Shown here piece after piece: positions 2,968-49,933 of a DNA stretch of 64,000 nucleotides. The notes under the pieces were generated by a model. That model did not search any database. It was given only the letters and a program-made list of their open reading frames with translations, and was not told the origin of the DNA. Location of the stretch: the NCBI GenBank assembly GCA_964612715.1, contig CAZTCY010000004.1:1989-65988 (forward strand), in the 5' to 3' direction. This DNA is from an uncultured Nitrosomonas sp. (GTDB lineage: Bacteria; Pseudomonadota; Gammaproteobacteria; Burkholderiales; Nitrosomonadaceae). The position numbers and the translations under genes were made by a program. Position 1 is the first letter of the stretch, and each line of letters begins with the position of its first letter.

Positions 2968-3404
2968 TGATTTCCCCTATAACAAAATTGTTCGCCATCA
3001 ATACGGACAGAACGCCAGATACATTGAGCAGCACGGCATAAAACAAACGCATATTAGCATGGCGCAAAATGCTTAACCGTGCATTTATGTTCGATTCATA
3101 TCGATACCGGTTTTTGCATTTTTTATATAACTGCCGGATCAACTGTTTAACTTGCATGTCACTCAACCGCATTAAGAGAATTTCCATAAAATTACAAAAC
3201 AATTTTTATTTGTGTTTACAAATCGAATTCGTATTGTATATACTACCAGTCATGTATTCGTGTCATAAGGATACAACATATAGTGGTTAAAAGTGTTATA
3301 CCAGTTATCCAATTTATTCAGATTCAACCGGATAATTATCCGGTTAACGCTTTGGAATCACATTGGTTTATTTCATACCAATGAATCAAAGGGAGTCAAA
3401 AACG

Positions 3405-6272
3405 ATGCAGCTGGTCACTGAAACTTCAAGCGCAACCCCCAAATCCGATATCAATGCTTTCGTGGATATTCATACCGACACCAGGCAATTCTCTCAATAT
3501 AAAATCATTCGCCGCAATGGCGCTGTCGTCGCGTTTGAACCCATCAAGATTTCAGTCGCCATGACCAAAGCGTTCATCGCTGTGGATGGCGGCCAGGGTG
3601 CCGCATCGGTTCGTGTACGCGAACTGGTTAACCGTCTGACGCTGGATGTCGTCAATGCCCTGATACGCCGCAAACCCGACAGCGGCACGTTTCACATCGA
3701 AGATATCCAGGATCAGGTTGAACTCGCGCTGATGCGCTCCGGCGCACATGACGTGGCACGCGCTTATGTGCTGTATCGTGAGGAACGTGCACGCGAACGC
3801 GCGCGCCTGAAGGAGCAGAATGCGGCACAATCCCAGGAAGATATACGCTATGTCACCGACAAAGGGCATCGTATCCCGCTGGATTTATCCCGATTGACTG
3901 CACTGATCGAATCATCCTGTGCAGGCCTTGGCGATATCGTCAATCCCGCGCTGATTTTGAAAGCGACTTTACGCGAGCTGTATGATGGCGTCACGCTGGA
4001 AGAAGTCAGGAAATCCGCCATTATGTCAGCACGCGCGCTGATTGAAAAAGAACCGGCCTACGGTTATGTCACCGCGCGCCTGTTGCTGAACAATATCCGC
4101 GCCGAAGTACTGGAAGAGGAAGTGCTGCAACAGGATATGCAGACACATTATGCTGAATATTTCCCGGTCTTTATCAGAAAAGGCATTGAAGCCGGCCTGC
4201 TTGACGAGCGCCTTGCACAATTTGATCTTGCCAGATTATCCGAAGCGCTTCAGGCCGACCGTGACCTGCAATTTGATTATCTCGGCCTGCAAACATTGTA
4301 TGACCGCTATTTTCTGCATATCAGGGAAAAACGCATTGAACTGCCACAGGCATTTTTCATGCGCGTTGCAATGGGACTCGCACTCCATGAAATCGACCGT
4401 GAAGCGCGTGCCGTCGAATTTTACAACGTTTTATCCAGCTTCGATTTCATGAGTTCGACACCAACGCTGTTCAATTCCGGCACCTGCCGTTCGCAGTTGT
4501 CCTCATGCTATCTGACCACCGTATCCGATGATCTTGACGGTATCTATGAAGCCATCAAGGAAAACGCATTACTCTCCAAATATGCGGGCGGCCTCGGTAA
4601 TGACTGGACGGCTGTACGCGCCATGGGTTCGCGCATCAAGGGCACTAACGGTAAATCGCAAGGTGTTGTGCCTTTCCTCAAAGTGGTATCCGATACCGCT
4701 GTCGCAGTCAATCAGGGCGGCAAGCGCAAAGGTGCGGTATGTGCCTACCTGGAGTGCTGGCATCTCGATATCGAGGAATTTCTCGAATTGCGCAAAAACA
4801 CCGGCGATGACCGCCGCCGCACGCATGATATGAATACTGCGACATGGATTCCCGATCTGTTCATGAAACGCGTCATGGAAGGCGATGAATGGACTCTGTT
4901 CTCTCCAGCGGATGTTCCGGATCTGCACGACAAATTCGGCCGCGTGTTCGAACAGGCTTATCTTGCTTATGAGGCAAAAGTCGAACGCGGCGAATTTGAT
5001 TTGTATAAAAAAGTTCCTGCCGTGCAGCTCTGGCGCAAAATGCTCAGCATGCTGTTTGAGACCGGCCACCCCTGGATTACTTTCAAAGACCCGTGCAACG
5101 TACGTTCGCCGCAAAATCATGTTGGCGTAGTACACAGCTCGAATCTGTGCACGGAAATCACGCTCAATACCAGCGAAAAGGAAATCGCGGTCTGCAACCT
5201 GGGTTCCGTCAATCTGGTCGCGCACCTGAATAATGGCGCACTCGATGCGGAAAAACTGAAACGCACCATCCGTACAGCCATGCGCATGCTCGATAACGTC
5301 GTAGACATCAATTTCTACGCGGTGTCCAAGGCAAGAAACGCCAATCTCCGCCATCGCCCTGTGGGTCTGGGTATCATGGGTTTCCAGGATTGTCTGCACC
5401 ACCTCGGCATTCCTTACGCTTCTGCAGAAGCCGTCGAATTTGCTGACCGTTCCATGGAACAGGTCGCTTACGAAGCCTATTGGGCTTCCAGCGAACTCGC
5501 CAAAGAGCGCGGCTGCTACAGCACCTTCAGGGGCAGCCTGTGGGATCGCGGCATACTCCCGCATGAATCGCTCCAGTTGTTACTGGAAGAACGCGGCGGC
5601 TATGTCGAGGCCGATATGTCCGCCACGCTCGATTGGGAAGCGTTACGCAAACAGATCAAAAAACATGGCATGCGCAATTCCAACTGCCTGGCGATTGCGC
5701 CAACGGCGACGATTTCCAATATCGTCGGCGTATCGGCAAGCATCGAGCCGACCTACCAGAATCTATACGTCAAATCCAATCTGTCCGGTGAATTTACCAT
5801 TACCAACAAATCCCTGGTGCGTGATCTGAAAGAACGCCATTTATGGGACGAAGTCATGATCGCCGACCTGAAATACTTCGATGGCGCGATCAGCAAAATC
5901 GACCGCATTCCCGAAGATATCCGCACACTTTACGCCACGGCTTTTGAAATGGACCCGCGCTGGCTCATTGAAGCGGCGGCGCGCCGGCAGAAATGGATTG
6001 ATCAAGCGCAATCGCTCAATATCTACATGGCAGGCGTTTCCGGCAAAAAACTCGATGACACGTACAAGCTGGCATGGCTGCGCGGTTTGAAAACGACCTA
6101 TTATCTGCGTTCTCTGGGTGCGACCACAGCGGAAAAATCCACTGTCCAGGCCGGCGCACTTAACGCCGTGCCTGCGCATGGCGGCATTCAGGGGATCAGC
6201 AGTATGGAAACCACAACGGTTGAAATTAAATACTGTGCCATTGACGATGAAAGCTGCGAATCCTGCCAGTAA
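3405..6272 (+). CDS. nrdA: Ribonucleotide reductase class Ia alpha subunit, long N-terminal form
   Basis: ATP-cone KIIRRNGAVVAFEPIKI followed by a second, degenerate cone. Active-site SSNLCTEI. C-terminal redox tail CESCQ. Start moved from the track's TTG at 3363 to ATG 3405, which has GGGAG 8 nt upstream. Confidence 0.95.
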   Translation: MQLVTETSSATPKSDINAFVDIHTDTRQFSQYKIIRRNGAVVAFEPIKISVAMTKAFIAVDGGQGAASVRVRELVNRLTLDVVNALIRRKPDSGTFHIEDIQDQVELALMRSGAHDVARAYVLYREERARERARLKEQNAAQSQEDIRYVTDKGHRIPLDLSRLTALIESSCAGLGDIVNPALILKATLRELYDGVTLEEVRKSAIMSARALIEKEPAYGYVTARLLLNNIRAEVLEEEVLQQDMQTHYAEYFPVFIRKGIEAGLLDERLAQFDLARLSEALQADRDLQFDYLGLQTLYDRYFLHIREKRIELPQAFFMRVAMGLALHEIDREARAVEFYNVLSSFDFMSSTPTLFNSGTCRSQLSSCYLTTVSDDLDGIYEAIKENALLSKYAGGLGNDWTAVRAMGSRIKGTNGKSQGVVPFLKVVSDTAVAVNQGGKRKGAVCAYLECWHLDIEEFLELRKNTGDDRRRTHDMNTATWIPDLFMKRVMEGDEWTLFSPADVPDLHDKFGRVFEQAYLAYEAKVERGEFDLYKKVPAVQLWRKMLSMLFETGHPWITFKDPCNVRSPQNHVGVVHSSNLCTEITLNTSEKEIAVCNLGSVNLVAHLNNGALDAEKLKRTIRTAMRMLDNVVDINFYAVSKARNANLRHRPVGLGIMGFQDCLHHLGIPYASAEAVEFADRSMEQVAYEAYWASSELAKERGCYSTFRGSLWDRGILPHESLQLLLEERGGYVEADMSATLDWEALRKQIKKHGMRNSNCLAIAPTATISNIVGVSASIEPTYQNLYVKSNLSGEFTITNKSLVRDLKERHLWDEVMIADLKYFDGAISKIDRIPEDIRTLYATAFEMDPRWLIEAAARRQKWIDQAQSLNIYMAGVSGKKLDDTYKLAWLRGLKTTYYLRSLGATTAEKSTVQAGALNAVPAHGGIQGISSMETTTVEIKYCAIDDESCESCQ

Positions 6273-6338
6273 AACTGGTGGATTTTAGCCAACAGAAAAA
6301 CACATTACGTACCATTATGTACGATGAGGAGCTTAAAC

Positions 6339-7505
6339 ATGCTGACATTTGAAGACGAACCCAAACAGCCGCAGAAACCTGCAAGCCCGATGCTTTCCAG
6401 CAGTCACCGCCATACTGAATTGCTCAACACGCGCCACGACAGCACCGAAAACACATCCGACGAACTGCCCGCGGCGGGCAATCCGCTCCGCCGCGTCGCC
6501 GTGGAAGACAAGAAAATCATCAATTGTAGCGCGGATGTAAATCAGCTGGTGCCTTTCAAGTACAAATGGGCCTGGGACAAATATCTCGCTGCCTGCGCCA
6601 ACCACTGGATGCCACAGGAAATCAGCATGAGCCGTGACATTGCGCTATGGAAAGATCCCAATGGCCTGACCGAGGATGAGCGCCGCGTCGTCAAACGCAA
6701 TCTGGGGTTCTTTGTCACTGCAGACTCGCTGGCGGCGAACAATATTGTGCTCGGCACCTACCGGCATATCACCAATCCCGAATGCCGCCAATATCTGTTG
6801 CGCCAGGCATTTGAAGAGGCCATTCATACCCATGCGTACCAATACATCGTCGAATCGCTCGGCCTCAACGAAGGTGAAATTTTCAACGCCTACCATGAAA
6901 TCGAATCTATCCGCGACAAAGATGAATTCCTGATTCCATTCATTGACACGCTGACCGACCCGAACTTCAAAACCGGCACCACGGAAACCGATCAGCAACT
7001 GCTCAAAAGCCTGATCGTGTTTGCATGCATCATGGAAGGTTTGTTTTTTTACGTCGGATTCGTCCAGATTCTGGCGCTCGGCCGGCAAAACAAAATGACC
7101 GGTGCGGCAGAACAGTATCAATACATTCTGCGCGATGAATCAATGCATTGCAATTTCGGCATCGATGTCATCAACCAGATCAAAATGGAAAACCCGCATC
7201 TGTGGACCAAAGCATTCCGCGAAGAAATCGCCGCACTGATGCGCAAGGCGGTGGCACTGGAATACCGCTATGCGGAAGACACCATGCCACGCGGCGTACT
7301 GGGCTTGAATGCGCCGATGTTCAAGGAATATCTGCGCTATATCACCAACCGCCGCTGCCAGCAGATCGGGCTGGATCCGCTCTACCCGGATGCGAACAAC
7401 CCATTCCCATGGATGTCGGAAATGATCGACCTGAAGAAAGAGAAGAATTTCTTCGAAACTCGGGTCATCGAGTATCAAACCGGTGGAGCACTTTCCTGGG
7501 ATTGA
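6339..7505 (+). CDS. nrdB: Ribonucleotide reductase class Ia beta subunit
   Basis: Diiron ExxH motifs [10 protein letters not shown] and [10 protein letters not shown]. Lies immediately downstream of nrdA. ATG 6339 is preceded by AGGAG, which sits inside the track's earlier start at 6324. Confidence 0.95.
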
Positions 7506-7580
7506 AGAATTCAATTACGTTCATGACACATCCGATACCCAGTAAGAACCTGAAATTTATAACCGTTGAGGAGATACAGG

Positions 7581-8981
7581 ATGGGTTACCGCGAAGAACG
7601 TGATGCAATGGGCAATATACAGGTGCCCGAAACAGCGCTGTGGGGCGCGCAGACCCAACGCTCCCTGGAAAATTTCAGGATCTCCGGCGAGCTCATGCCA
7701 GCGGCGCTGATCCATGCGCTGGCGCAGGTAAAACGCTGTGCCGCCACCGTTAACCACGATCTTGGACTGCTGAACGCGGCAGCGACCGCAGCGATTATTC
7801 AGGCGGCGGACGAAGTCATCAACGGCCAGCATGACGATGAATTTCCACTGGTTGTCTGGCAGACCGGATCAGGCACGCAGACCAACATGAACATGAACGA
7901 GGTACTGGCCAACCGTGCTTCGGAGCTGCTCGGCGGCGGGCGCGGCGCGGCGCGCAAAATTCACCCCAACGATGACGTCAACAAGGGCCAATCTTCCAAC
8001 GATGTATTTCCCACCGCAATGCATGTCGCAGCCGCGCAAAGCATCCAGCATCGACTGATACCGGCGATACGCCGGCTGCACGGCACGCTGGCGCAAAAAG
8101 CCGAGGCATTTTCAGATATTGTCAAAATCGGCCGCACGCATTTACAGGACGCCACACCGCTCACCCTCGGGCAGGAATTTTCCGGCTATGTCGCGCAGCT
8201 TGACCACGGACTGAAGCATATCGAAGCCGCCCTGCCCCATTTATACGAACTCGCACTTGGCGGCACTGCGGTTGGCACCGGCCTGAATGCGCACCCGGAA
8301 TTCGCGCCGCGCGTTGCGGGCGAGATCGCCTATCTCACCCAGCTGCCGTTCGTCACCGCGCCGAACAAATTTGAAGCGCTGGCCAGCAACGATGCGCTTG
8401 TTCACGCGCATGGCGCGTTGAAAACACTGGCCGCATCGATGATAAAAATCGCCAACGATATCCGCTGGCTCGCATCCGGCCCGCGCTGCGGCATCGGCGA
8501 ACTCAAAATCCCGGAAAACGAACCCGGCAGTTCGATCATGCCCGGCAAAGTCAACCCGACGCAATCGGAAGCCATAGCCATGCTGTGCTGTCAGGTAATG
8601 GGCAACGACGTCGCCATCAACATAGGCGGCGCGATGGGTAACTTCGAACTGAACGTGATGAAACCGCTGATCATCCATAATTTCCTGCACAGCGTACGCC
8701 TGCTCGCCGACGGCATCACCAGCTTCAACGACCACTGCGCCACCGGCATCGAAGCCAACCTGGAACGCATCGACACACTGATGCATCACTCGCTGATGCT
8801 CGTCACCGCGCTTAATCCGCATATCGGCTATGACAAAGCCGCGGAAATCGCCAAAAAGGCGCACCGTGAAGGCACGACACTCAAAGTTGCCGCAATCGCC
8901 ACCGGTTATGTCACCGCTGCACAGTTTGACGCCTGGGTCGACCCGCGGAAAATGGTCAACCCGGATAATGGAAGCATCTGA
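7581..8981 (+). CDS. fumC: Class II fumarate hydratase
   Basis: Fumarate-lyase signature [16 protein letters not shown] and N-terminal [22 protein letters not shown] 7581 is preceded by GAGGAG. Confidence 0.95.
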
Positions 8982-9460: not shown

Positions 9461-11641
9461 TTATCCCACCCTATACGTACTTGCAACGTTATCCAGATTC
9501 AGTTCCGAACCATAATCGGAAATACCAATACTCTTTGCGGCCGCATCACTGACCACTCTTCCGGCAGCCAGTCTAATTACCCGATCGGCGCTTGCAATCG
9601 TTTCAGGGCGATGCGCCACGATAATCCGTGTCAGTTTAAGTAAGCGTATCGCATGATTGACGTTTTGCTCACAATGGATGTCCAGGTGACTTGTCGCTTC
9701 ATCCAGAAAAAGAATAGCCGGTTGCCGGTATAAGGCGCGGGCCAGCAATAACCGCTGTTTCTGGCCACCCGACAACACTGCGCCCATATCCCCTACTAAT
9801 GTGTTGAATTGCATGGGCATCGCAATAATATCCTGATGAATTGCAGCAAGGCACGCACTTGCTTCAATGCGTTCAAAATCAGGCCGCGGGTCAAAAAAGC
9901 AAATGTTCTCGGCAATCGAACCGGCAAAGAGCTGATCATCCTGCATCACACTCGCAACCGCCTGGCGGTATCGTGTAATCCCCATGCGATTCAAAGGCAA
10001 CCCGTCAACCTCAATATCCCCCTGTGTAGGCTGTAGCAAACCGAGCATAAGTTTTACCAATGTTGTTTTGCCACAACCCGAAGGCCCCACGATCGCTACT
10101 GATTCTCCTGCCTGAATACTAAAATTCATATCCTGCAACACCAGTGGATCGTTTTCTGTGTAACGGAAAGCGAGATTCTTAACCTCAATGCGACCGGCAG
10201 GCGGCATAAAAGAAACATTCTGAAGTTCATCCACCGGTTCAACCGGTGTAAGCGCCACGTCACCGACCCGTTCAGTATGAAGCTCCAGCATGCGCAACTC
10301 CAGTCCTTTCTCGATCAGGGCGGAAATCCGCTGCACAAACTGGGTTTTATAAGCTATAAATGCAAACAACATACCAATGGAAAAACCGCTGCCATTGGCC
10401 GTATCCAGTATCAGCATGGCACCCAGCCCAACGGTAATAATATTTTCGATCCCGAACAAAAGGCCATTCAGTCCCTGATATAAAATATTCAAACGTTGTG
10501 TCCGGATATCTGCATTGAACTGATCGGTGAGCAGATTCTGCCAACTGGCAGCGCGGGATGCTTCATAAGCGAACAGTTTAATGCTTTGCATCCCCCTCAC
10601 GGTTTCCAGGAAATGGCTGTGCTGTTTCGCGCCGCGTACGATATGATCTTCAGTCGCCAGTCGCAGCGGGCGGTACAGCGCAACGCGCAACAACCCATAC
10701 AACATCGCCGCGGTAAGCGCGACCAAAGCCAATTTGATACTGTAAAAAAGCATCATCGCGAATGTGATGATCACCATCACACCGTCGATCAAAGCTTCCA
10801 GAAAACCGGTTGTCAATGTACGCTGGATAGCATTCAATGAATCGAAACGCGACACGATATCCCCAATATGGCGCTTATTGAACCACTGCATGGGCAAGCG
10901 GATCAGGTGACGAAACAGATTCGTCATCATCTGTAAATTCAATGTCGTGCTTAACACCATCAATACCCAGGCTCTTAACGCTGTAACACTGACCTGTACT
11001 ATGGCCAGCAAAAAAAAGCCCGTACCTAAAATCGTCACCAGATCATGATCATGCGCAACCAGGGCATGATCAACTACCCACTGCATATAGAAAGGCGCCA
11101 GAATAGCAAAAATCTGCAATATCATCGCAAGCACCAGAATTTGGGTGATGGCCCCTCCCAAACCCTGCAGACGACCGATCAACGAACGTAGTTTTATCTT
11201 GCGAATGTCGTTACGCGCAGCAAACGTATTCGTTGGAGTCAGTTCAAGTGCAATACCTGTAAAATGTTTCGAAAATTCAGCCAAAACGATATCACGTTCC
11301 CCCATTGCGGGATCATGCACTGTCACGCGATCACGCTGTACCTTTGTCAAAACCACGAAATGATTAAAATCCCAATGCAGCAGGCAAGGTAATGTCAATT
11401 CAGGTAAATGTTCGAGATCAAGGCGCAAAGGGCGTGAAGCCAGCTTTAACTGATCAGCGATCAGAATTAAATCAGCCAATGTCGAACCCCGTAGTGAAAC
11501 GCTATGCTGCGCCCGTAACGTGGTCAGATTAATCCGATGGCCATGAAAGCTGGCAATCATCGCTAAGCAGGCCAGACCACATTCAGCCGCTTCGGTTTGC
11601 AGGATAACCGGGGTTCGATTCCGTAGTGAAAAATCAAGCAT
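9461..11641 (-). CDS. Peptidase C39 domain-containing ABC exporter (CvaB/LagD-type bacteriocin/RiPP leader-cleaving transporter)
   Basis: N-terminal C39 domain with catalytic Cys (QTEAAECGLACLAM) and His (LLHWDFNHFVVL). Six-TM region. Walker A GPSGCGKTT, ABC signature LSGGQKQRL, Walker B ILFLDEATSHLD. Confidence 0.9.
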   Translation of the reverse strand: MLDFSLRNRTPVILQTEAAECGLACLAMIASFHGHRINLTTLRAQHSVSLRGSTLADLILIADQLKLASRPLRLDLEHLPELTLPCLLHWDFNHFVVLTKVQRDRVTVHDPAMGERDIVLAEFSKHFTGIALELTPTNTFAARNDIRKIKLRSLIGRLQGLGGAITQILVLAMILQIFAILAPFYMQWVVDHALVAHDHDLVTILGTGFFLLAIVQVSVTALRAWVLMVLSTTLNLQMMTNLFRHLIRLPMQWFNKRHIGDIVSRFDSLNAIQRTLTTGFLEALIDGVMVIITFAMMLFYSIKLALVALTAAMLYGLLRVALYRPLRLATEDHIVRGAKQHSHFLETVRGMQSIKLFAYEASRAASWQNLLTDQFNADIRTQRLNILYQGLNGLLFGIENIITVGLGAMLILDTANGSGFSIGMLFAFIAYKTQFVQRISALIEKGLELRMLELHTERVGDVALTPVEPVDELQNVSFMPPAGRIEVKNLAFRYTENDPLVLQDMNFSIQAGESVAIVGPSGCGKTTLVKLMLGLLQPTQGDIEVDGLPLNRMGITRYRQAVASVMQDDQLFAGSIAENICFFDPRPDFERIEASACLAAIHQDIIAMPMQFNTLVGDMGAVLSGGQKQRLLLARALYRQPAILFLDEATSHLDIHCEQNVNHAIRLLKLTRIIVAHRPETIASADRVIRLAAGRVVSDAAAKSIGISDYGSELNLDNVASTYRVG

Positions 11642-11643
11642 GA

Positions 11644-12891
11644 TCAGATACGGCCGGTGATCGACAATACAGGATCAAAAACCCATTCGATCAGACGCCG
11701 CCGGTCAATATGAATATCCGCGTCCAGCACCATTTCCGCCTGTAACGGTATAGCCTGCCCATAAGCCTGAACCTGTTGTTGAGGCAGGCGAACTGTAGCG
11801 CGATAAACCGGTTCTTGAATTGCTACCGGCAAATTAGACGCATCCGGTTGAATCACTGCACGGCTGATTTCAATCACTTCACCCAAATGATGCCCAAAAC
11901 GCTGATAAGGAAAAGCCTGGTAGCGCAGAGAAACCGGCTGTGCAGGCTTAATGAATCCTGCGGAGCGCGTCGGTATTAACAGTTGCGCCTGTAATTCCGC
12001 ACCCGCAGGTAAAATGGAAAGCAGAGGCAGATTGGCATGGGCGGTCTGCCCGACTTCTGCCAGAATGGTGGTCACTGTACCGTCGGCGGGCGCAGTCAAA
12101 ACAATACTGCGCCGGATATCAGTTTCCGTGAGCTGTTGTTCCAATTCTGAAATTTGCCGCTCAATGGCTGCCTGGTTATTAACCTGCTTTAAACGCGATG
12201 CGGATAATTCAATACGCGCCGTGCTCAATTCACGATTCAGACTTGAAATGCTGCGCCGGATCTGCGCCAGTTGATTACGTTGATCGATTAATTCTTCATG
12301 CTTCTGCTGCACGGCAGCTTCGGACATAAACCGTTCCGCAACTAATTTCTGATACCGTGCGACCGTACGTTCAGCGCTGGCAACACGACTGGATTGCAGC
12401 ACTAATTGTGCTTCTGTCTCACGGATTTCTGTTTCGAGCCCGCGAATACGCCCGGCAATACCGATTCCAGTCAGTGCATCAATCTCACTTTGCTGACTTT
12501 GTTCGAATCGCAAACTCGCTTGCCGTTGTTTGAGTTCGGCAAGCATAGTGGCTTGCGCTTCGCGTGCATTGGCTGTCGTGCGCTCACTGGAAATCGTCAG
12601 CAAGGGATCACCCTGTTTGACAGATTGCCCTTCACGCACATGCTTTTCCTGAACCGTGCCCATTTGGGGGGAATAAATCCGGATCATGCCTGTAGTCGGT
12701 GACAGATACCCCACGACATGCGCTTTACGTGTATATTCGCCCCAGAAGGCAAACCCTGTCAGAGCTGCCGTGAATATCACGGCTATCCAGATCAGCAGGT
12801 TGATCGCCGGTGATCGCGCAATCAGCACATCGCCCTTTAACGGATCATACTGGTAAGCTAGAGCTTCTGAGCGAAAAAGAGCGTGTGACAT
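11644..12891 (-). CDS. HlyD/CvaA-family membrane fusion protein (bacteriocin export accessory)
   Basis: N-terminal FRSEAL motif typical of CvaA/LcnD, a single TM (INLLIWIAVIFTAALTGFAFW), and a long coiled-coil middle region. Its stop lies 2 nt from the ABC gene's start. Confidence 0.9.
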   Translation of the reverse strand: MSHALFRSEALAYQYDPLKGDVLIARSPAINLLIWIAVIFTAALTGFAFWGEYTRKAHVVGYLSPTTGMIRIYSPQMGTVQEKHVREGQSVKQGDPLLTISSERTTANAREAQATMLAELKQRQASLRFEQSQQSEIDALTGIGIAGRIRGLETEIRETEAQLVLQSSRVASAERTVARYQKLVAERFMSEAAVQQKHEELIDQRNQLAQIRRSISSLNRELSTARIELSASRLKQVNNQAAIERQISELEQQLTETDIRRSIVLTAPADGTVTTILAEVGQTAHANLPLLSILPAGAELQAQLLIPTRSAGFIKPAQPVSLRYQAFPYQRFGHHLGEVIEISRAVIQPDASNLPVAIQEPVYRATVRLPQQQVQAYGQAIPLQAEMVLDADIHIDRRRLIEWVFDPVLSITGRI

Positions 12892-12972: not shown

Positions 12973-14010
12973 TCACATCGACATAAGATGCACGGCTTGA
13001 TTTTGAGCAGTCCTGCTCGCTTCCTCAGCGCGTTTACCAATCAGGTTATACCAATCAAAGAAGAAAGGCGCAGGCGCACGCACGATTTCCGCATAAACGT
13101 CGCGACATAATGAATAAAATGCGGGTAAACCTTGTTTACGCCATTCTGAAACCAACACACCGAGTGGCGCATGTTTTAAATTACCCATCGTATAATCACG
13201 TGAGAAACCGTGTTGGATCGGACTGACCGTGCCGTCCGCTTCGATCACCAGTGGCGCTATGAGCTCGCCAAACCGTTTTCTTTCTGCGCCGGATACATCG
13301 CCGGCAAACACCAGTTCCGGTTGTTGTTTGATCATTTCACTAAACACAAGATCAATTTGTATCCGGATATCGCTATTGATTTTCTGCTGGGCCAGCATCC
13401 AGGCATAGGCACTTTCAGTTGCATCCGGTGAATTGCCGCGCAGCAGCGTTGCCGCATTCCCCACCTCTTCCAGCGGATGTATCTGCAGCAGTTTTGCACC
13501 TTCACTTACCGCGAAATTGCGCACCCAGTCGAGCTCATCCAGGTTATATTGGGTTAAGGTAAAGATAAATCCAAAAGACATATCCGCTGCGCGCAATAGC
13601 GGCAAGCGTGATTTCATGGTATCGAACGCAAGCTGTGAGCCCCTGATCCGGTTATGCGATGCCGGAACACCATCGATACTGATAGCGAGCACATCCACCA
13701 CATCACGTAGCCGTTCGATTTTCCGCTCGGTTAATAACATGCCATTGGTTGTAACCGCTGTTCTCATACCTAGACGGCGTGCGTGTTCCAGCAGTTCAAT
13801 CAATGGTTTGTAAAGCACCGGCTCACCTCCCGAAAGGCTAACATAGTTGAAGCCTTCATGAGCGGCATCTGAAATCGCATCACATAATAGTTCCAATGTT
13901 AAATGTCCCTTTTCATTCGGGGATGAAGACGAGTAGCAATGGAGACAACTCAAATTACATTGCCGACTTGGGTGAATCTGTAAAGCACGTGATAATCCGG
14001 TTGGCCCCAT
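12973..14010 (-). CDS. Radical SAM enzyme, predicted peptide maturase; no SPASM/twitch cysteine set
   Basis: CX3CX2C at residues 18-25 (CNLSCLHC) and SAM-binding GGE motif (SLSGGEPVL). Only 5 Cys in total, with a single Cys in the C-terminal third (FYSLCRDVY). AAGGAG RBS upstream. Starts 29 nt downstream of the precursor ORF. Confidence 0.85.
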   Translation of the reverse strand: MGPTGLSRALQIHPSRQCNLSCLHCYSSSSPNEKGHLTLELLCDAISDAAHEGFNYVSLSGGEPVLYKPLIELLEHARRLGMRTAVTTNGMLLTERKIERLRDVVDVLAISIDGVPASHNRIRGSQLAFDTMKSRLPLLRAADMSFGFIFTLTQYNLDELDWVRNFAVSEGAKLLQIHPLEEVGNAATLLRGNSPDATESAYAWMLAQQKINSDIRIQIDLVFSEMIKQQPELVFAGDVSGAERKRFGELIAPLVIEADGTVSPIQHGFSRDYTMGNLKHAPLGVLVSEWRKQGLPAFYSLCRDVYAEIVRAPAPFFFDWYNLIGKRAEEASRTAQNQAVHLMSM

Positions 14011-14039: not shown

Positions 14040-14270
14040 TTAATATTTATTCACCTGTGTCTGCAATAACTTAGATACAAACAGATCTGGAGGAGGCATA
14101 CCATTAATAAAAATCCCAGGAAAAATATTTATATTTCCTGATACAGGGATACGAAAATCAGGATTTGGAATATGCCCCCCTGCTATTTGTGCAATTTCTT
14201 CCGACGTCAGGCTGGCCATAGTCCGGCACTTCGCTTTCAGTTTCTCTGAACCACGCATTTCTTGTGACAT
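14040..14270 (-). CDS. RiPP/microcin-like precursor peptide with double-glycine leader (76 aa)
   Basis: Start trimmed to ATG 14270 (MSQEMRG...), which has AAGGAG 7 nt upstream. The leader ends LTSEEIAQIAGG, matching the double-glycine consensus L-S-x-x-E-L-x-x-I-x-G-G at positions -12, -8, -7, -4, -2 and -1. The predicted core is HIPNPDFRIPVSGNINIFPGIFINGMPPPDLFVSKLLQTQVNKY, encoded at 14043-14174. Confidence 0.7.
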   Translation of the reverse strand: MSQEMRGSEKLKAKCRTMASLTSEEIAQIAGGHIPNPDFRIPVSGNINIFPGIFINGMPPPDLFVSKLLQTQVNKY

Positions 14271-14899: not shown

Positions 14900-15430
14900 T
14901 CATTTGCTTCCGAACTCCCGCTCCAGCCAGCCATCGAGCAATGTTTTTTCGTGGCGCAGGGGATCATTATGGTACATGATCGTAGTCATCAGAAAGGCCA
15001 TGTCGCGCAGCTCGCGCTTCCCGTCCTTTACGACGGCGCCATCGGCGTCAGTGAGCTGGAAGTACAGATCGATCCGGGGCGGATAGCTATCCCGCACGAT
15101 CCGTACATCGTTCATGAGTGGCCGCCACGGTTCAAAGCTGCCGGCCATATCCACATCGATAATGGTGACGGTAAGATTCTGCCCATCGGCCAGGAGGTGG
15201 CTTGCGCGCCATTGGATATGCCTGCGCAGTTCCTCGAGGTAAGTGGCGCGAGCGGCCTTATTGCTGCCGGAATAACTGTCTCCAACATCGCTGAACTTCT
15301 CGGGGTCGGCATATTCAATGTGAATGGAAGGCGCAGGCGTTACGGCATCTCCCTGTGCCGTTGCAGAAACGGCCCACATGCTAAACAGCGTAAGAATCAG
15401 GACTGGGGCAAGCGCATTGTTCGAAGTCAT
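14900..15430 (-). CDS. Secreted hypothetical protein, DUF3016-like
   Basis: Start trimmed to ATG 15430 (AGGAG RBS). Signal peptide MTSNNALAPVLILTLFSMWAVSATAQG. Downstream of and co-directional with a TonB-dependent receptor. The family assignment is from memory of DUF3016 sequences and was not verified. Confidence 0.6.
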   Translation of the reverse strand: MTSNNALAPVLILTLFSMWAVSATAQGDAVTPAPSIHIEYADPEKFSDVGDSYSGSNKAARATYLEELRRHIQWRASHLLADGQNLTVTIIDVDMAGSFEPWRPLMNDVRIVRDSYPPRIDLYFQLTDADGAVVKDGKRELRDMAFLMTTIMYHNDPLRHEKTLLDGWLEREFGSK

Positions 15431-15625
15431 GATGTTCTCCTGTTTTATTGTGTTCATTACGAAAAAAACCGAGGTGATGTATCTGGTTTTTGGCCTGTTT
15501 CTGACCCGGAAGGTTCCATCATTCATCTGTGGTACAGAGCCGATTACTGTGCAAAATCAGATGCAGGCCTATTATGATCTGTACCAAATCGCGTGATTTA
15601 TATTACGGATCAGCGGCGCATTCTA

Positions 15626-15673: not shown

Positions 15674-17812
15674 CTAGAAAGTATATCGAATACCCCCCTG
15701 GAACAACCGTGGCATTCCCGGGATGATCCCGCGGGTTCTGTCTACAATATAAACGTCGTCCGTCAGGTTTTTGATCATGAAGAAGAACGTGGTTTTCAAC
15801 GGCGCATGGTGATAATTGATGGCCAGATTGAAAATGGTATAAGGATCAATCAGACCGGCCTGGCCATTTTCTGAAGATGCGACGGTATTGGCGAAGTCGG
15901 AAAATTGCCGGCTGACATGAACAGCTTCGATTTGCGAATCCAGTCCCCATTTGGCAAAACCCACTGCGGCCGTGACCAGATGCTCAGGTGCATAAGGCAG
16001 ACGGTTGCCGTGCGCACTGCCGGGTACGACGGCGCCTGTGTCAACGCGCGTGAATGGTGATTCCTGCCGCGCTGTAGGCAGCCAGGTATAGGCGGTGCGG
16101 ATATAAGTGCCAAACGGCATATCAATTCTGCCGGAGAATTCAACCCCTTGATACAAGGTTTCACCTTGTGCAAGTGGGGTGCTTCCTCCCGCAATCGAAC
16201 CTACCGCAATCTGCTTCTGAAAATCATTGCGGAAGAAGGAAGCCTGCAGATTGACACCTTCCACCACATTCACCCTGGCGCCGACTTCCCAGTTGACTGA
16301 TTTTTCCGCGCCGACATCGGTGCTGGTTCCGGTACCGCCAATGACATCCTCGGTGCGCGGCGGTGCAAAGCCACGGTGCGCACTCGCAAACGCGGTTACT
16401 TTATTGTGCGGATTCCAGGTCAAACCGAGACTGGGCAGCCAGGCATCCAGATTGTCGCTGCCACTCACGCCACTCATCCGGTTCTTGCGTTCATAATCAA
16501 TGTATTCATACCGTATTCCGGGTGTCGCGGTAAATTGCCCGAGATTGAAGCGGTTGGTCATAAACCAGGAATAGGCCTGTGTTTCCCGTACATTGTTCTC
16601 CTGCAATCCATTTTGCGATGGATTAAATTGCCCGATATTCACCTGACGGCGATCCTGCGTTTCGAAGTGTGCCCTGAAACCAAAATCCAGATTGCTCTGT
16701 ACGCCGAGAAGATTATGATTGTATCTTAAGCGTGGTTCCACACCCCAGGTATAGTATTCGCGCAAACGTCCCTGTGTGCCGCAGGTATTAACGTCAATTG
16801 CCTGACCGCCCGCCCGGGCCGTCGTAAAATCGTTGCCGCACTGTGTATCGGTGGTGGTGCTGGCTGCCCGCCACCAATCCCGGTCAAACCGGGCAAAGTA
16901 GAGATTGGTTGTCAGTGAAAGATCATTGGTGATGAATACATCATGCGTAGCCGATAAACCGACACGGCCGCTGTTGAATTTGTCATTCTTAAACGGATTA
17001 TAGCGCGCACCGAAATTGTTGAATTCTGCGGTAGTCAAACCGCTGTAGGTGAGCTGCGAATCCTCGGTATAGTAATTGGCGCGAAGCGTAAGCGCCTGAT
17101 TATCTGTCAGACCCACCACGTATTTCAGGTTATAGTCTCTCAGTTCGCTATGAATGTTGTCACGCGCACCATCGGACTGTTTGTGCGTGAAATCGAACAG
17201 CAATCCCCTGCCGCCCACTTGCAACTTACCGTTGAAATAATCGCGGCTGCCGCCGATCGCCTGGATATGGCCGCCGAATTTCTGCGGCGGGGTTGGCGTA
17301 ATATAGTTGATGACGCCACCGATTGTTTGCGGACCAAACCGGATCTGATCGGCGCCTTTGAGTATCTCAATGCTCTCAAAACGCTCAATGGGCGGATGAA
17401 AGTAACTGGCATTGTCACCATAAGGCGCATAAGACAATGGGACACCATCCTCCAGCAGGTTGATTTTGGTCGAACGTGTCGGATTCAAACCACGTATCCC
17501 GATATTGGGACGCAATCCCAGTCCTTCCTCATCCCGCATATGAATGCCCGGCACTTTGCGTAAAGCTTCGTTAACAGTGAAAACCCTGCTCTGCTCGAGC
17601 GTTTCCTTGTCAAGAACATTCGCGGTACCGGACACGTTGGTCAGATTCTCAGGCACGCCAACAACGTCAATGCGAGGCATAACGATCTGTTTTTTTTCCT
17701 GTTCCCCGGTTGTTTTATCCTTGTCGTGCGTATCGCTCTGCTGTGCCTGCAGCGACGAAGCGATAACTGCTGCGGATACAGCTGAAAAGAGCCTGTACTT
17801 GAAATACCGCAT
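15674..17812 (-). CDS. TonB-dependent outer-membrane receptor (FecA/ferric-siderophore-like)
   Basis: Signal peptide, plug-domain motifs (FTVNEALRKVPGI, IEILKGADQIRFGPQTIGGVINYIT), a beta-barrel and a terminal aromatic residue (GGIRYTF). Confidence 0.9.
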   Translation of the reverse strand: MRYFKYRLFSAVSAAVIASSLQAQQSDTHDKDKTTGEQEKKQIVMPRIDVVGVPENLTNVSGTANVLDKETLEQSRVFTVNEALRKVPGIHMRDEEGLGLRPNIGIRGLNPTRSTKINLLEDGVPLSYAPYGDNASYFHPPIERFESIEILKGADQIRFGPQTIGGVINYITPTPPQKFGGHIQAIGGSRDYFNGKLQVGGRGLLFDFTHKQSDGARDNIHSELRDYNLKYVVGLTDNQALTLRANYYTEDSQLTYSGLTTAEFNNFGARYNPFKNDKFNSGRVGLSATHDVFITNDLSLTTNLYFARFDRDWWRAASTTTDTQCGNDFTTARAGGQAIDVNTCGTQGRLREYYTWGVEPRLRYNHNLLGVQSNLDFGFRAHFETQDRRQVNIGQFNPSQNGLQENNVRETQAYSWFMTNRFNLGQFTATPGIRYEYIDYERKNRMSGVSGSDNLDAWLPSLGLTWNPHNKVTAFASAHRGFAPPRTEDVIGGTGTSTDVGAEKSVNWEVGARVNVVEGVNLQASFFRNDFQKQIAVGSIAGGSTPLAQGETLYQGVEFSGRIDMPFGTYIRTAYTWLPTARQESPFTRVDTGAVVPGSAHGNRLPYAPEHLVTAAVGFAKWGLDSQIEAVHVSRQFSDFANTVASSENGQAGLIDPYTIFNLAINYHHAPLKTTFFFMIKNLTDDVYIVDRTRGIIPGMPRLFQGGIRYTF

Positions 17813-18416: not shown

Positions 18417-20642
18417 ATGGAAATGAAAATGGCAAAAATAGACCGTCCATGGGACATATTCCCAATAAAACCGGCTGTGTCCGCATTGGCACTGGCTTTC
18501 GGCGGAATGGCAAATGCGAACGAGCAGTCACTGGTACTGCCCGAAATCGAGGTTAAAGCGCTCAAAAGCAATGAAAGAAGTAATGCTTATAAAGCAGAGA
18601 AATCGGACAATCAAAAATTCACCGCCCCACTGATCGACATGCCTAAATCAATTACTGTGATTACCGATGAGGTCATCAAGGATACGGGTTCACTGTCACT
18701 TCAGGATGCTTTGCGAACAACGCCGGGTATTACTTTTGGTAGTGGTGAGGGCGGTATCGCAACAGGTGACCGCCCGTTTATTCGTGGATTTGACGCTTTT
18801 TCATCGATTTTCGTAGATGGTTTGCGTGATCTGGGCACTCAAACACGTGAGATATTCGCAGTCGAACAAATGGAAGTGCTGAAAGGCCCAAGTGGCGCTT
18901 TTGATGGCCGAGGCTCTGCCGGGGGTAGTATCAATATCGTTACCAAACAAGCAAGAGCCGGGAATTTTATGACCGGATCCGCTGGCTTTGGGAGTGACAA
19001 ATTCGTGCGCGGAACCGTCGATGTTAACCGTATGATTAGTGATAATGTCGCCGTTCGGATAGTCGGTATGGGGCATACAGCAGATACACCCGGACGCGAT
19101 AATGTCAATGTACAGCGTTGGGGGGTGATGCCATCTGTCACACTGGGTTTGAATACACCGACCAGCGCCACACTGAGCTGGTATCACCTGGAAACGGATG
19201 ATCGCTCAGACTGGGGTATTCCATATGTTCAGAACGCCGCCAATGCCGCTGTTCCGGAAGGTAAGCCGGTGGGTCCGCGGGATGCCTGGTATGGCGTTAA
19301 AGGCCGGGATTTCCATGACACTCAAGCGGATATCGGTACATTTAAGCTTTCGCATGCCTTCAACGACAATCTGATAGTACGTAATACCACGCGCTATGGC
19401 ATAACAAGCAACGAAATTTTTGTGGGACGTCCCAATATCAGCAGCGCTCAGCTCGCAGATGGTTTCGTGGATAGAACTAATTCCAGAAACCGTGGCACCG
19501 AAACTGAGACGATTGCCAATTTGACGGATGTGTCATTTAAATTCGATACCGGCCCCGTTAAGCATAATTTAAATGCGGGTGTCGAAGTAAGCTGGGAAGA
19601 TTATTCGAACCGTGCCTATACGGGCGGTGCGATCACCAATGCAGGTGACCGCCTGACACCGATCAACAACCCTGATCCCAATGTTGCTTTTGACCGCGTT
19701 GTCCGGAATAACCACCCCAGTACTGAAATGAAGGCGGATAATCAATCTGTCTACATATTTGACAGCATGGATCTGACAGAGAAGTTGTTGCTGAATGCGG
19801 GCGTTCGTTTTGACCATTACCGTGTCAGAGCGCATAACTTCAATGTCGATACAGGTGCGAATACCTCTAGTTTCACGAATGATAAGAGTTTCTTCAATTA
19901 TCAGGCGGGCGCAGTTTACAAGGTGCTGCCTAATGCGAACGTCTACGCATCCTTCGCGACTTCATCTTCGCCGATAGGTTTGGCGATGGGTGATTTCGGC
20001 TACGCGGGCAGTGCTTTAGACGCAAATACACAGAACCTGAAACCCGAGCGTACTGAGACTTATGAAGTGGGTACCAAATGGAATGTAATGCGTGATTTAG
20101 CCGTTACCTTAGCCGGATTCCATACCAAAAAAACCAATGCGCGTGTGAATACCGGTCTGAACATTGAGAATGTGGGCGAAGCCGAAGTAAACGGTATGGA
20201 ACTGGGTCTGGCAGGTAGTATTACTGACAAATGGAACATATTTGGCGGTTATACTTTTCTGGATGCCGAGCAAACTAAGGTTGGTGACAGCACTGATCCG
20301 AATGCGGTTGGCTCAGCCAGCAGTAAAGGTAAACGACTGCATGGCACCCCGGAGCACGCTGCCAGCGTGTGGACGACCTATGAGATATTTCCACGTTTTA
20401 CGTTAGGCGGCGGTGCATTCTACAAGGGCAGAGTGTACTCTGACCCGAGCAATAACGGTTATATGCCTGCCTACGTGCGCTTTGACTTAATGGCGAAATA
20501 TGCCATCAACAGGAATCTGGATCTTCAGCTGAATGTTCAGAATCTGACGGATAAACGGTATTTCGACACAACCTACTTCCGTCACTATGCCATACCCGCA
20601 CCGGGACGCTTTGCGTTTGTTAATTTGATCCTTAAGATGTAG
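18417..20642 (+). CDS. TonB-dependent catecholate-siderophore receptor (Fiu/PiuA-like)
   Basis: Plug motifs (SITVITDEVIKDTGSLSLQDALRTTPGITFG, MEVLKGPSG) and a large barrel. Followed by a PiuC/YbiX-type hydroxylase, as in E. coli fiu-ybiX and P. aeruginosa piuA-piuC. The start could also be ATG 18423 or 18429. Confidence 0.9.
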   Translation: MEMKMAKIDRPWDIFPIKPAVSALALAFGGMANANEQSLVLPEIEVKALKSNERSNAYKAEKSDNQKFTAPLIDMPKSITVITDEVIKDTGSLSLQDALRTTPGITFGSGEGGIATGDRPFIRGFDAFSSIFVDGLRDLGTQTREIFAVEQMEVLKGPSGAFDGRGSAGGSINIVTKQARAGNFMTGSAGFGSDKFVRGTVDVNRMISDNVAVRIVGMGHTADTPGRDNVNVQRWGVMPSVTLGLNTPTSATLSWYHLETDDRSDWGIPYVQNAANAAVPEGKPVGPRDAWYGVKGRDFHDTQADIGTFKLSHAFNDNLIVRNTTRYGITSNEIFVGRPNISSAQLADGFVDRTNSRNRGTETETIANLTDVSFKFDTGPVKHNLNAGVEVSWEDYSNRAYTGGAITNAGDRLTPINNPDPNVAFDRVVRNNHPSTEMKADNQSVYIFDSMDLTEKLLLNAGVRFDHYRVRAHNFNVDTGANTSSFTNDKSFFNYQAGAVYKVLPNANVYASFATSSSPIGLAMGDFGYAGSALDANTQNLKPERTETYEVGTKWNVMRDLAVTLAGFHTKKTNARVNTGLNIENVGEAEVNGMELGLAGSITDKWNIFGGYTFLDAEQTKVGDSTDPNAVGSASSKGKRLHGTPEHAASVWTTYEIFPRFTLGGGAFYKGRVYSDPSNNGYMPAYVRFDLMAKYAINRNLDLQLNVQNLTDKRYFDTTYFRHYAIPAPGRFAFVNLILKM

Positions 20643-20740: not shown

Positions 20741-20786
20741 TGGATTGCGTTTACAATATCAATTTTGTGTCAAAAAGGTTTTCAAA

Positions 20787-21470
20787 ATGCTCCTGACTAT
20801 TCCGGATGTACTCACAAAAGCACAAGTTGCAGAATGCAGAAAGTTGATGGATCAGGCTGAATGGGTGGATGGTAATGTAACATCAGGGCACCTGTCGGCG
20901 CTGGCCAAAAATAATATGCAACTGCCCGAGGAATCGGATACCGCACGCAAAATTGGTGAATTTATTCTGGATGCTATCGGCATGAGCCCCTTGTTCATCT
21001 CTGCGGCTTTACCGTTAAAAGTATTTCCGCCGTTGTTCAATCGTTATGAAAGCGGACAGTCATTCGGCACGCATGTGGATAATGCGATCCGCCAGTTGCG
21101 CGGGACAAATTTCCGGATTCGTAGTGATCTCTCCGCAACACTGTTTTTTTCTGAACCGGAAGATTATGACGGTGGCGCACTAACAATAGAGGATACATTT
21201 GGCGTGCAAGCGGTAAAACTGCCTGCCGGTTCCATGGTGCTGTATCCCTCAAGCAGCTTGCATCATGTCACACCGGTAACGCGCGGCGCGCGCGTATCTT
21301 CATTTTTCTGGATGCAGAGCATGGTGCGCAATGATGCACATCGTACACTGCTATTCCAGCTGGATAACGCGATACAGAAACTCACAGTCGACCGTGGCGG
21401 CAAAGATCCTGAAGTGATCAGTCTGTCCGGGGTATATCATAACTTGCTGAGAATGTGGGCAGACAGCTGA
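20787..21470 (+). CDS. piuC: Fe(II)/2-oxoglutarate-dependent PKHD-type hydroxylase (PiuC/YbiX family)
   Basis: The N-terminus [34 protein letters not shown] parallels YbiX. Contains the HxD...H facial triad region (GTHVDNA ... [11 protein letters not shown]). Start trimmed to ATG 20787. Confidence 0.85.
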
Positions 21471-47930: not shown

Positions 47931-48022
47931 TTTACCCGATATGATTGGCTTGCCGTCTAATTGGTACAGTCGACAGGAACACCGCAGCATACTTTAAGAA
48001 GCCTGTATAAAACCAGACAGCT

Positions 48023-48038
48023 ACCAGTTAAAACTGGT
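48023..48038. promoter_or_regulatory. Perfect 16-bp palindrome ACCAGTTAAAACTGGT (candidate operator)
   Basis: Read directly. About 130 nt upstream of the TauE-family gene. A 10-bp perfect inverted repeat, AAGGATATTA / TAATATCCTT, follows at 48093-48126. Confidence 0.35.
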
Positions 48039-48168
48039 GAATGAGGCAATATTGACTAAAATCAGGATACGGGTTCTCTAAGAATTGGTTATAAGGATAT
48101 TACTTAATGGTATTTATAATATCCTTCAGGATTAGTTATATTGCCGTACATTTTTTAAAAATAACCCT

Positions 48169-49149: not shown

Positions 49150-49357
49150 ATTACAAATTTTCACGCAACATGGGGTTAACTGAAGTTGGTGATAGTGAAG
49201 CCATTTCTGGGAGAAGTTAACATAGCCTCGTTCCAGAAATCGCAAGACTCTGGACAATCTGAAATAACCGATTAATCCAGAGTCTGAGTCTGATTTATCT
49301 CATACGGAATACAAATAGTGCATGAAGATATAAATACGTCTCTGGATTGTATACAGA

Positions 49358-49495
49358 TCAACTGACATTTTTCCTGGCCAAGCCTGCAAGCCACAGCATA
49401 GGCAGAATCATCAACGACAGCGTTAACGGTTCCGATATGCCGACTGCTGCATCAGGTTGTTAATTGGAATAATCACCCGAAAGCCAATAATTCAT
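49358..49495 (-). pseudogene. PEP-CTERM sorting-signal remnant with an in-frame TAA
   Basis: Own translation gives MNYWLSGDYSN*QPDAAVGISEPLTLSLMILPMLWLAGLARKNVS*. The SEP-hydrophobic-RK tail resembles a PEP-CTERM anchor. There is no signal peptide or mature domain. Confidence 0.3.
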
Positions 49496-49645
49496 ATCTT
49501 GCTGTTTTATATAATATTATATATTGAGTATAACAACTTAAAACAGAGACAAAGGCGAGTGGAAAGTAGGTCAGTTACATAAGCTTGTTGGGTTAATTGA
49601 AGTTCAAAATATACGTACGAACCGCGAGTCCAATTGGTCCGTTGC

Positions 49646-49933
49646 TCAGCAATAATATTGCGAAGGCACCAATACAATTACCGCAGCAACGATCTGTCCT
49701 ATACCGGCGCCAATAGCACCTCCAACGATCCCTCCAATAATCCAGGAAAAACCTTCTTGTTGTGAATTTTCATGAACAGTGGCCGCGCCAAGGAAAAACC
49801 CCACAAACGCCCCGAATGTCATAAGATTTTCTTTTATAGTTTCGCTCTCAGCAATCATACTGCTTACGATACTAAGTATTATGAGGCTTATAATTCCGCC
49901 AATTATTGCTCCAACCACAGGATCCACTTCCAT
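49646..49933 (-). CDS. Small glycine-zipper membrane protein (about 95 aa)
   Basis: Two Gly-rich TM segments (VVGAIIGGIISLIIL and IIGGIVGGAIGAGIGQIVAAVIVL). The track's start at 50104 is rejected because a strong terminator lies at 50076-50100. The next in-frame ATG, at 49933, has no clear RBS. Confidence 0.4.
   Translation of the reverse strand: MEVDPVVGAIIGGIISLIILSIVSSMIAESETIKENLMTFGAFVGFFLGAATVHENSQQEGFSWIIGGIVGGAIGAGIGQIVAAVIVLVPSQYYC

Follow-up and report, generated by a model that had tools for sequence, protein, structure and literature searches.

We analysed a 64,000-nucleotide stretch of DNA from an uncultured Nitrosomonas sp. (contig CAZTCY010000004.1; hereafter the window), in which a gene at 12973–14010 on the minus strand encodes a radical SAM (S-adenosylmethionine) protein of 345 residues. 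On balance, we consider it probable that this protein is a single-cluster maturase derived from the SPASM enzymes, which is encoded in a four-gene export operon and acts on a Gly-x-Pro (G-x-P) motif of the precursor peptide encoded directly upstream. SPASM-related radical SAM peptide maturases are almost all thought to need auxiliary iron–sulfur clusters, and usually an RRE (recognition element) as well, and the present protein belongs to a widespread family that has neither. What is new here is a SPASM maturase devoid of cluster-binding cysteine residues together with a new substrate family, in a radical SAM-dependent RiPP (a peptide made by ribosomes and modified after translation) system. 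Neither the enzyme family nor its substrate motif was found described in the literature searched, the coverage of which was incomplete. In the following sections, we establish the gene anatomy, the family, its pairing with an upstream partner and the conservation of the motif, and then weigh the possible chemistry.

The radical SAM protein carries a single predicted cluster

The gene and the parts of its product that matter for the argument are as follows.

12973–14010, minus strand: radical SAM maturase, 345 aa (Pfam Radical_SAM, 2e-22; AlphaFold2 model with a pLDDT [predicted local distance difference test] of 91.4)
13936–13959, minus strand: segment spanning the CX3CX2C motif (invariant in 44/44 intact family members)
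13066–13251, minus strand: Cys-less SPASM remnant, residues 254–315, a β-hairpin LVIEADGTVSPIQHGF followed by helices (anSME alignment, Pfam and AlphaFold2)
13105–13107, minus strand: codon of Cys302, the sole conserved non-cluster cysteine residue (alignment of close homologues)

Membership of the radical SAM superfamily is clear from Cys18, Cys22 and Cys25 and from a PF04055 score of 80.6 bits (cut-off 29.5). SGGEP and the other core motifs are invariant among the homologues; a conservation of at least 93% across 44 intact members is reached by, among others, His13, His24, Tyr26, Tyr67, Asp113, His119, Arg123, Gln176, His178, Asp220, Pro264, Trp290 and Trp320. Landmarks along the chain are CNLSCLHC from residue 18, LVIEADGTVSPIQHG from residue 254 and FYSLCRDVY from residue 298. 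A first-pass annotation, made from the letters alone, had counted only five cysteine residues, and translation of the gene gives exactly Cys18, Cys22, Cys25, Cys43 and Cys302. It had also argued that an N-terminal RRE was absent, and this holds: the cluster motif begins at residue 18, and the open reading frame (ORF) cannot be extended upstream, being preceded by an in-frame stop codon, with the end of the precursor gene 29 nt away. An AAGGAG Shine–Dalgarno sequence lies 5′ of the ATG, and the N-terminus MGPTG is kept in the homologues. Since the ORF cannot be extended, the ATG has its own AAGGAG and MGPTG is conserved, an N-terminal RRE is excluded. The only Pfam matches of the protein were Radical_SAM and Fer4_12, with neither SPASM nor PqqD above threshold. 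Beyond the SPASM remnant, the C-terminus consists of a single helix (residues 320–344 of the AlphaFold2 model), leaving the protein with an RRE at neither end.

A likeness of the C-terminal stretch to the start of a SPASM domain, noted at first pass, was borne out by profile comparison. With a profile of 33 homologues, residues 256–315 aligned with the SPASM domain of anSME as a second matched stretch; with a profile restricted to the C-terminal domain, residues 254–315 matched anSME residues 265–320, hairpin and helix, with E = 3.7e-4. In this alignment, LVIEADGTVvPiqygF...GN of the family stands opposite VVESDGSVYPCDF...GN of anSME, and the position of the anSME cluster ligand Cys276 is isoleucine in the family profile. 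Of the C-terminal domains of 22 homologues, 13 were matched by the Pfam SPASM model below its threshold (best 1.1e-4), and the window protein itself scored 12.4 bits (threshold 21.5). In the AlphaFold2 model, strands at residues 254–256 and 261–264 are followed by helices at 283–293 and 295–311. The fold elements of a SPASM/twitch domain, a hairpin and then a helix, are thus present, whereas the cysteine ligands for an auxiliary cluster are not. A structural comparison with AlphaFold and Foldseek, of the kind that the first-pass annotation had proposed, returned SkfB, BlsE, viperin, EpeE, SuiB, CteB and anSME as the best matches, with template modelling (TM) scores of 0.53–0.64; SPASM/twitch maturases, EpeE and SuiB among them, were nearest. 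The C-terminal domain is, by prediction, a SPASM descendant that has lost all of its auxiliary-cluster cysteine residues. Only two cysteine residues lie outside CX3CX2C, which is too few to ligate an auxiliary [4Fe-4S] cluster, and Cys43 is not conserved among close homologues. The earlier proposal of a single-[4Fe-4S]-cluster enzyme is therefore well supported, as firmly as a sequence allows.

Clear orthology to a characterized non-peptide radical SAM enzyme, on the absence of which the first-pass reading depended, was not found by scoring against NCBIfam. A misrecognized haem enzyme of the AhbD/NirJ type, an anSME or a viperin-like nucleotide dehydratase would fit the JGI names of family members ('Fe-coproporphyrin III synthase' and 'AslB') and the identity of the best NCBIfam matches (NirJ, AhbD and viperin_w_prok), with pVip models matching residues 12–182. 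However, the scores were far below the curated cut-offs (NirJ 95.7 compared with 515, AhbD 90.2 with 500, viperin 78 with 180 and anSME 55.2 with 349), and all the matches were confined to the generic radical SAM core, that of viperin NF038283 covering residues 11–124 only, short of the C-terminal CTP-binding extension, and that of pVip only residues 12–182. The auxiliary-cluster cysteine residues required by AhbD, NirJ and anSME are absent, and the gene sits in a peptide-export operon. Membership of these non-peptide families is refuted, and a non-peptide enzyme of such a kind is very improbable.

A widespread family of ~340-residue proteins

The protein belongs to a family of ~340-aa proteins that is resolved by neither Pfam nor NCBIfam. 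A word-indexed protein search returned 1405 matches, the best 120 of which were ~335–365 aa long, at least 49% identical, without a SPASM Pfam domain and carrying generic or wrong names. A genome scan found 555 relatives in species-representative genomes, in hosts that include Nitrosomonas, Nitrospira defluvii, Acidobacteriota, cyanobacteria, Kitasatospora, Streptomyces, Rhodanobacter, Bradyrhizobium and Chloroflexia, among others. The C-terminal-domain profile matched the representatives of 556 clusters formed at 50% identity (300 of them with E ≤ 1e-10), and in these the domain was always located at approximately residues 215–340 of ~340-aa proteins.

Public databases list P0015, P0016, P0020, P0088 and others as 'Fe-coproporphyrin III synthase', 'sulfatase maturation enzyme AslB' or 'radical SAM/SPASM domain-containing protein', names that, judged by model scores, are unsupported for members of the family. 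Four distant relatives (P0280, P0320, P0345 and P0347) have lost CX3CX2C while keeping the family C-terminal domain and the cysteine equivalent to Cys302, and are presumably catalytically dead. At another locus (L083, 6914–7054, plus strand), a 46-aa ORF, MIFNPLYQEVTTPAELPITDWDEAIACYAG..., matches the C-terminus of the family and sits between lanthipeptide precursor genes; it appears to be what is left of a second copy of the maturase gene after decay.

The precursor peptide and its export operon

The remaining genes of the operon, and the parts of the precursor, are listed below.

14040–14270, minus strand: precursor peptide gene, 76 aa, MSQEMRGSEKLKAKCRTMASLTSEEIAQIAGG + HIPNPDFRIPVSGNINIFPGIFINGMPPPDLFVSKLLQTQVNKY (ORF with AAGGAG; the public gene call P0121 has an identical product)
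14175–14270, minus strand: leader, residues 1–32, with RGSEKL and a double-glycine motif (read from the sequence)
14043–14174, minus strand: core peptide, 44 aa, no cysteine (read from the sequence)
14079–14114, minus strand: core motif IFINGMPPPDLF, a predicted β-hairpin turn (motif enrichment; AlphaFold2 model of a long partner)
11644–12891, minus strand: HlyD-family periplasmic adaptor, 415 aa (NCBIfam type_I_hlyD, 3.2e-44; Pfam HlyD_3 and HlyD_D23)
9461–11641, minus strand: PCAT (C39-peptidase ATP-binding cassette [ABC] exporter), 726 aa (Pfam Peptidase_C39, 1.5e-36, ABC_membrane and ABC_tran)

The precursor begins with MRGSEKL and carries IFINGMPPPDLF in its C-terminal half. Residues 21–32 of the leader, LTSEEIAQIAGG, fit the well-established double-glycine consensus, with Leu at −12, Glu at −8, Ile at −7 and −4, and Gly at −2 and −1. 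As read from the sequence, the N-terminal C39 domain of the PCAT contains the expected catalytic cysteine (in AECGLAC), histidine and aspartate residues. With its Gly-Gly motif, adjacent C39-ABC gene and HlyD gene, the operon belongs with the double-glycine/PCAT export systems, and cleavage after the leader is predicted. Precursor, radical SAM protein, HlyD adaptor and C39-ABC exporter are encoded in this order on the minus strand, and we infer that the operon exports a modified peptide. The company of a double-glycine precursor, an HlyD adaptor and a C39-ABC exporter supports the assignment of the radical SAM protein as a peptide maturase.

A word-indexed database search with the 76-aa peptide matched only the peptide itself, and its homology was therefore demonstrated through a profile built from genomic loci. 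Against a partner profile constructed without any Nitrosomonas-type peptides, the precursor scored 24.8 bits, with both motifs aligned, compared with a maximum of 5.5 among 1000 shuffled sequences. The leaders of five related short precursors were 55–84% identical to the window leader, whereas the cores were only 14–25% identical, and the cores of the six short precursors share essentially the G-x-P motif alone. IFINGMPPPDLF is likely to be the recognition or modification site. The four-gene operon is found again in two other places, a Nitrosomonas metagenome-assembled genome and a soil contig, with radical SAM proteins that are 88 and 51% identical, respectively. No second precursor and no second radical SAM gene was found within the 64-kb window.

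The leader of the window precursor has a cysteine residue, Cys15 (14226–14228), seven residues past the invariant serine (GSEKLKxxC). All of the short double-glycine-type precursors (window, L001, L002, L087, L088 and L089) share it; the long partners of ~105 aa do not.

A conserved upstream partner with a G-x-P motif

Neighbouring ORFs were clustered over 51 loci of the family. Three clusters of apparently conserved neighbours (C1, C2 and C6) were discarded as shadow ORFs overlapping the radical SAM gene, and the sole conserved neighbour was a small gene on the same strand, immediately upstream of the radical SAM gene. By profile search, this partner was present directly upstream in 43 of the 51 loci. 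Among the other eight, two had ordinary double-glycine peptides, and most of the rest were truncated or had a broken CX3CX2C motif. The partner proteins, the window precursor included, had no match in Pfam or NCBIfam (NHLP and Nif11 models included in these), and the partner proteins had none in PADLOC or PHROGs; 236 database relatives were found, and all of those listed were unnamed or called hypothetical. From gene order and the logic of export, we infer that the partner is the substrate of the radical SAM enzyme.

The N-terminus of the partner is usually R-G-S-E-K-L, with the glycine and serine residues invariant, and further along each sequence has one or two copies of the motif hydrophobic-x-x-G-x-P-x-P-D. 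The G-x-P motif occurred 256 times in 163 partner sequences, compared with 37±6 times in shuffled sequences, an enrichment of approximately 7-fold, and 160 of the 163 had at least one copy. Positions −3 and −4 are often isoleucine, leucine or methionine, and no conserved reactive side chain (cysteine, tryptophan, tyrosine or lysine) was found among the partner sequences. The two loci with ordinary double-glycine peptides, both cyanobacterial, are informative. The peptides of L012 and L020 have an ordinary double-glycine leader in place of RGSEKL, and their cores contain FPHGIP (L012) or LPNGIP and FPYGIP (L020), so that the G-x-P motif is retained despite the different leader type. The core motif, rather than the leader, is the constant feature of the system, and this constancy across leader types is what one would expect if the enzyme, having no RRE, recognizes the core motif and probably modifies it.

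Two observations weigh against this reading. First, a typical partner of 108 aa was modelled by AlphaFold2 (pLDDT of 76) with a helical N-terminus of low confidence and then a β-hairpin, a helix and a second β-hairpin; both G-x-P motifs form the hairpin turns, and the conserved glycine and proline residues may therefore be mere β-turn residues and not a modification site. Secondly, at one cyanobacterial locus, the radical SAM gene is part of a cluster that encodes LanM, a C39-ABC protein and five cysteine-rich precursors without RGSEKL, only one of which has a motif-like stretch, ILPNGICIDP, in its core.

The predicted fold of the long partners (~105–130 aa) also bears on a different role for the upstream protein, as an accessory subunit, RRE stand-in or activator, the true substrate then being encoded elsewhere or being a small molecule. 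A folded protein of this kind would suit such a role, as would the finding that most long partners occur in bare two-gene cassettes with no protease or exporter. However, the model had no significant relative of known fold, RRE/PqqD included (the best Foldseek match was the PilO core, E = 1.2e-3). In the window, L089 and L087, moreover, the partner is shortened to a canonical double-glycine-leader peptide and followed by a C39-peptidase exporter, an arrangement that is sensible only for an exported product, and hypervariable cores behind conserved leaders are the usual RiPP pattern. An accessory role thus appears improbable, and we continue with the partner as the substrate.

The ~130-aa partners of L035–L046 form a type of their own, in which the first G-x-P motif is replaced by VVGG and an additional conserved segment, GDDxPxCGND, contains an invariant cysteine residue. 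The radical SAM proteins of L040 and L043, which are paired with this type, are among those that lack Cys302.

Cys302 as a candidate hydrogen-atom donor

The first-pass annotation had singled out the lone C-terminal cysteine residue as a candidate hydrogen-atom donor of an epimerase-type reaction. This residue, Cys302, is invariant in all 33 close homologues (48–88% identity), and to that extent the proposal stands, the pattern recalling the lone conserved Cys372 of PoyD (PMC8326336, PMC13012085). Among divergent representatives with an intact CX3CX2C motif, however, Cys302 is present in 34 of 46 and missing from 12, and it does not figure among the residues that are at least 93% conserved in the 44 intact members. 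Several further observations argue in the same direction. The residue is replaced by Ser, Ala, Thr, Met, Ser, Leu and Val in L011, L027, L029, L034, L040, L043 and L048 respectively, and all seven of these species-level loci keep CX3CX2C and have the upstream partner (7/7). The enzyme of Roseateles flavus (L043) has only the three cluster cysteine residues in the whole protein. The equivalent cysteine is kept in some relatives that have lost CX3CX2C, which hints at a structural role for Cys302. Two more relatives without Cys302, P0296 and P0336, have an upstream gene of 116 or 108 aa, which may encode a partner. The enzyme also lacks the other hallmarks of the PoyD-type epimerases (a C-terminal RRE, and an NHLP leader on the substrate) and of the EpeE type (an auxiliary cluster).

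In the epimerase EpeE, the C223S mutant retains some activity (PMC13012085). This could account for the serine variants in the present family, but not for the alanine, leucine and valine variants. Cys302 may thus be the hydrogen donor in the close clade, with no family-wide requirement for it; as the donor in epimerization, Cys302 is possible but unlikely, the proposal being weakened by its replacement in seven partner-bearing lineages.

Proposed mode of action and alternative chemistries

In the scheme that we propose, the radical SAM enzyme would bind the 76-aa precursor without an RRE and recognize the core motif hydrophobic-x-x-G-x-P (IFINGMPPPDLF), probably aided by the RGSEKL motif of the leader. 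A hydrogen atom would be abstracted within or beside the hairpin turn, the modification preceding removal of the leader. The PCAT would then cleave after the Gly-Gly of the leader and secrete the 44-residue product.

As to the reaction itself, a redox-neutral, backbone-centred one is the most economical, because the enzyme lacks an auxiliary cluster that could accept an electron from the substrate radical and the substrates conserve no reactive side chain. Epimerization at a Cα, of whatever kind, is our first choice, tentative and a conjecture, with Cys302 as the candidate hydrogen donor in this clade. Alternatively, the enzyme may cross-link or dehydrogenate the peptide within the hairpin motif (a C–C, C–N or C–O bond, −2 Da) without an auxiliary cluster, the electron returning via the radical SAM cluster or to an external acceptor and Cys302 being structural. 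Its nearest structural relatives, SkfB, SuiB and CteB, are cross-linking SPASM/twitch maturases, Cys302 is dispensable in several lineages, and aromatic or hydrophobic residues flank the motif in many members (e.g. FPYGIP and WWxxGQP), all of which would be consistent with cross-linking. On the other hand, no conserved side chain is fit for it, positions −3 and −4 often being isoleucine, leucine or methionine, and the family has lost every ligand cysteine, whereas all known peptide cross-linking radical SAM enzymes of the clade have retained one auxiliary cluster or more, as is well established (PMC13012085). Cross-linking or dehydrogenation, rather unlikely in our view, comes second to epimerization, itself less likely than not.

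Three more specific modifications were considered and set aside: a three-residue cyclophane (triceptide) at F-P-N or F-I-N, as the first position is often isoleucine, leucine or methionine and triceptide enzymes need SPASM clusters; a spliceotide (XYG in FPYGIP), as the tyrosine residue is not conserved; and a glycyl-radical 'Gly finger' at the glycine of the hairpin tip, as many of the hosts (Nitrosomonas, Nitrospira, cyanobacteria and streptomycetes) are, to judge from their taxonomy, aerobes, and as the peptide of the window operon is secreted.

A broader picture can be drawn for the family, one that we put forward as possible and short of probable. The family would install an undescribed modification at a Gly-x-Pro hairpin turn, by means of a radical SAM enzyme that has neither auxiliary clusters nor an RRE and reads the core motif. 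The ancestral substrates would have been small folded intracellular proteins of ~105 aa with two modified hairpin tips, the Nitrosomonas operon being a later derivative in which a single hairpin was reduced to a secreted peptide, processed at a double glycine.

Members of the family go closely together with a substrate family that has no annotation. The family offers a natural test of the function of a cluster-free SPASM scaffold and of substrate recognition in the absence of an RRE. Once the chemistry is solved, it would give RiPP genome mining a new class of enzyme and substrate, and correct names such as 'Fe-coproporphyrin III synthase'. The operon in the window is a convenient experimental entry, with four genes and a 44-residue, cysteine-free core.

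Genomic surroundings

Directly upstream of the operon lie genes for a DUF3016 protein, two TonB-dependent receptors and a PKHD-type 2OG (2-oxoglutarate)-Fe(II) hydroxylase, and on its other side a class I ribonucleotide reductase and fumarase C.

14900–15526 (minus), 15674–17812 (minus), 18417–20642 (plus) and 20745–21470 (plus): genes upstream of the operon
3363–7505: class I ribonucleotide reductase
7566–8981: fumarase C

Nothing ties the DUF3016, TonB receptor, hydroxylase, ribonucleotide reductase or fumarase C genes to the peptide operon. Elsewhere in the window, the G+C content falls to 0.438 at 48001–50000, compared with ~0.50–0.55 around it, and this segment could be a foreign insert.

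Comparison with known systems

Proteusin epimerases of the PoyD type have only the radical SAM cluster and a single conserved cysteine residue outside CX3CX2C (Cys372 in PoyD) as the proposed hydrogen donor, and their activity depends largely on the core rather than on the leader (PMC8326336, PMC13012085). The window enzyme resembles PoyD, OspD, AvpD and PlpD in its predicted restriction to the radical SAM cluster; one cysteine residue beyond CX3CX2C, Cys302, is conserved in its close clade. The PoyD-type enzymes are distinguished by a C-terminal RRE and by substrates with long NHLP-type leaders. The window enzyme shows a Cys-less SPASM remnant instead and is devoid of an RRE, the leader of its precursor combines RGSEKL with a double glycine, and Cys302 is not strictly conserved across the family. 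Since there is no C-terminal RRE and no NHLP leader on the substrate, it is not a member of the PoyD type.

EpeE (YydG) is of similar size (~320–345 aa) and also has no RRE, and its structure (8ai4) was matched by Foldseek with E ~7e-13 and a TM score of 0.53–0.56. Its hydrogen donor is a cysteine residue of the protein, Cys223. Its T-SPASM domain retains one auxiliary [4Fe-4S] cluster, for which a role in re-reducing the thiyl radical has been proposed (PMC13012085). The window enzyme differs in having no auxiliary-cluster ligands, and the sequence similarity is limited to residues 8–105. SkfB, SuiB, CteB, PqqE and anSME gave the best sequence and fold matches, the radical SAM core and the first SPASM elements being alignable, but these enzymes bind one or two auxiliary clusters through four to eight cysteine residues, none of which is found in the window family, and SkfB, SuiB and CteB carry an N-terminal RRE that the window enzyme lacks. 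BlsE, DesII and viperin belong to the same structural neighbourhood of the superfamily, and like the window enzyme have a radical SAM core without auxiliary iron–sulfur clusters. Their substrates, however, are nucleotides or sugars and not peptides, the viperin and pVip scores are below the cut-offs, and the gene context is entirely different.

On the export side, the operon resembles double-glycine bacteriocin systems with a PCAT and an HlyD adaptor, both in the leader consensus (L−12/E−8/I−7/I−4/GG) and in the adjacent C39-ABC and HlyD genes; it differs from them in the radical SAM gene without auxiliary clusters that stands between precursor and exporter, and in the RGSEKL of the leader. 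Taken together, the enzyme is structurally a derivative of the SPASM/twitch group that does not have its defining auxiliary-cluster ligands, and is not an EpeE-type enzyme, a viperin, an AhbD/NirJ or an anSME. In its proposed action it is most like the epimerases of the PoyD type, which are free of auxiliary clusters, and it stands outside that group.

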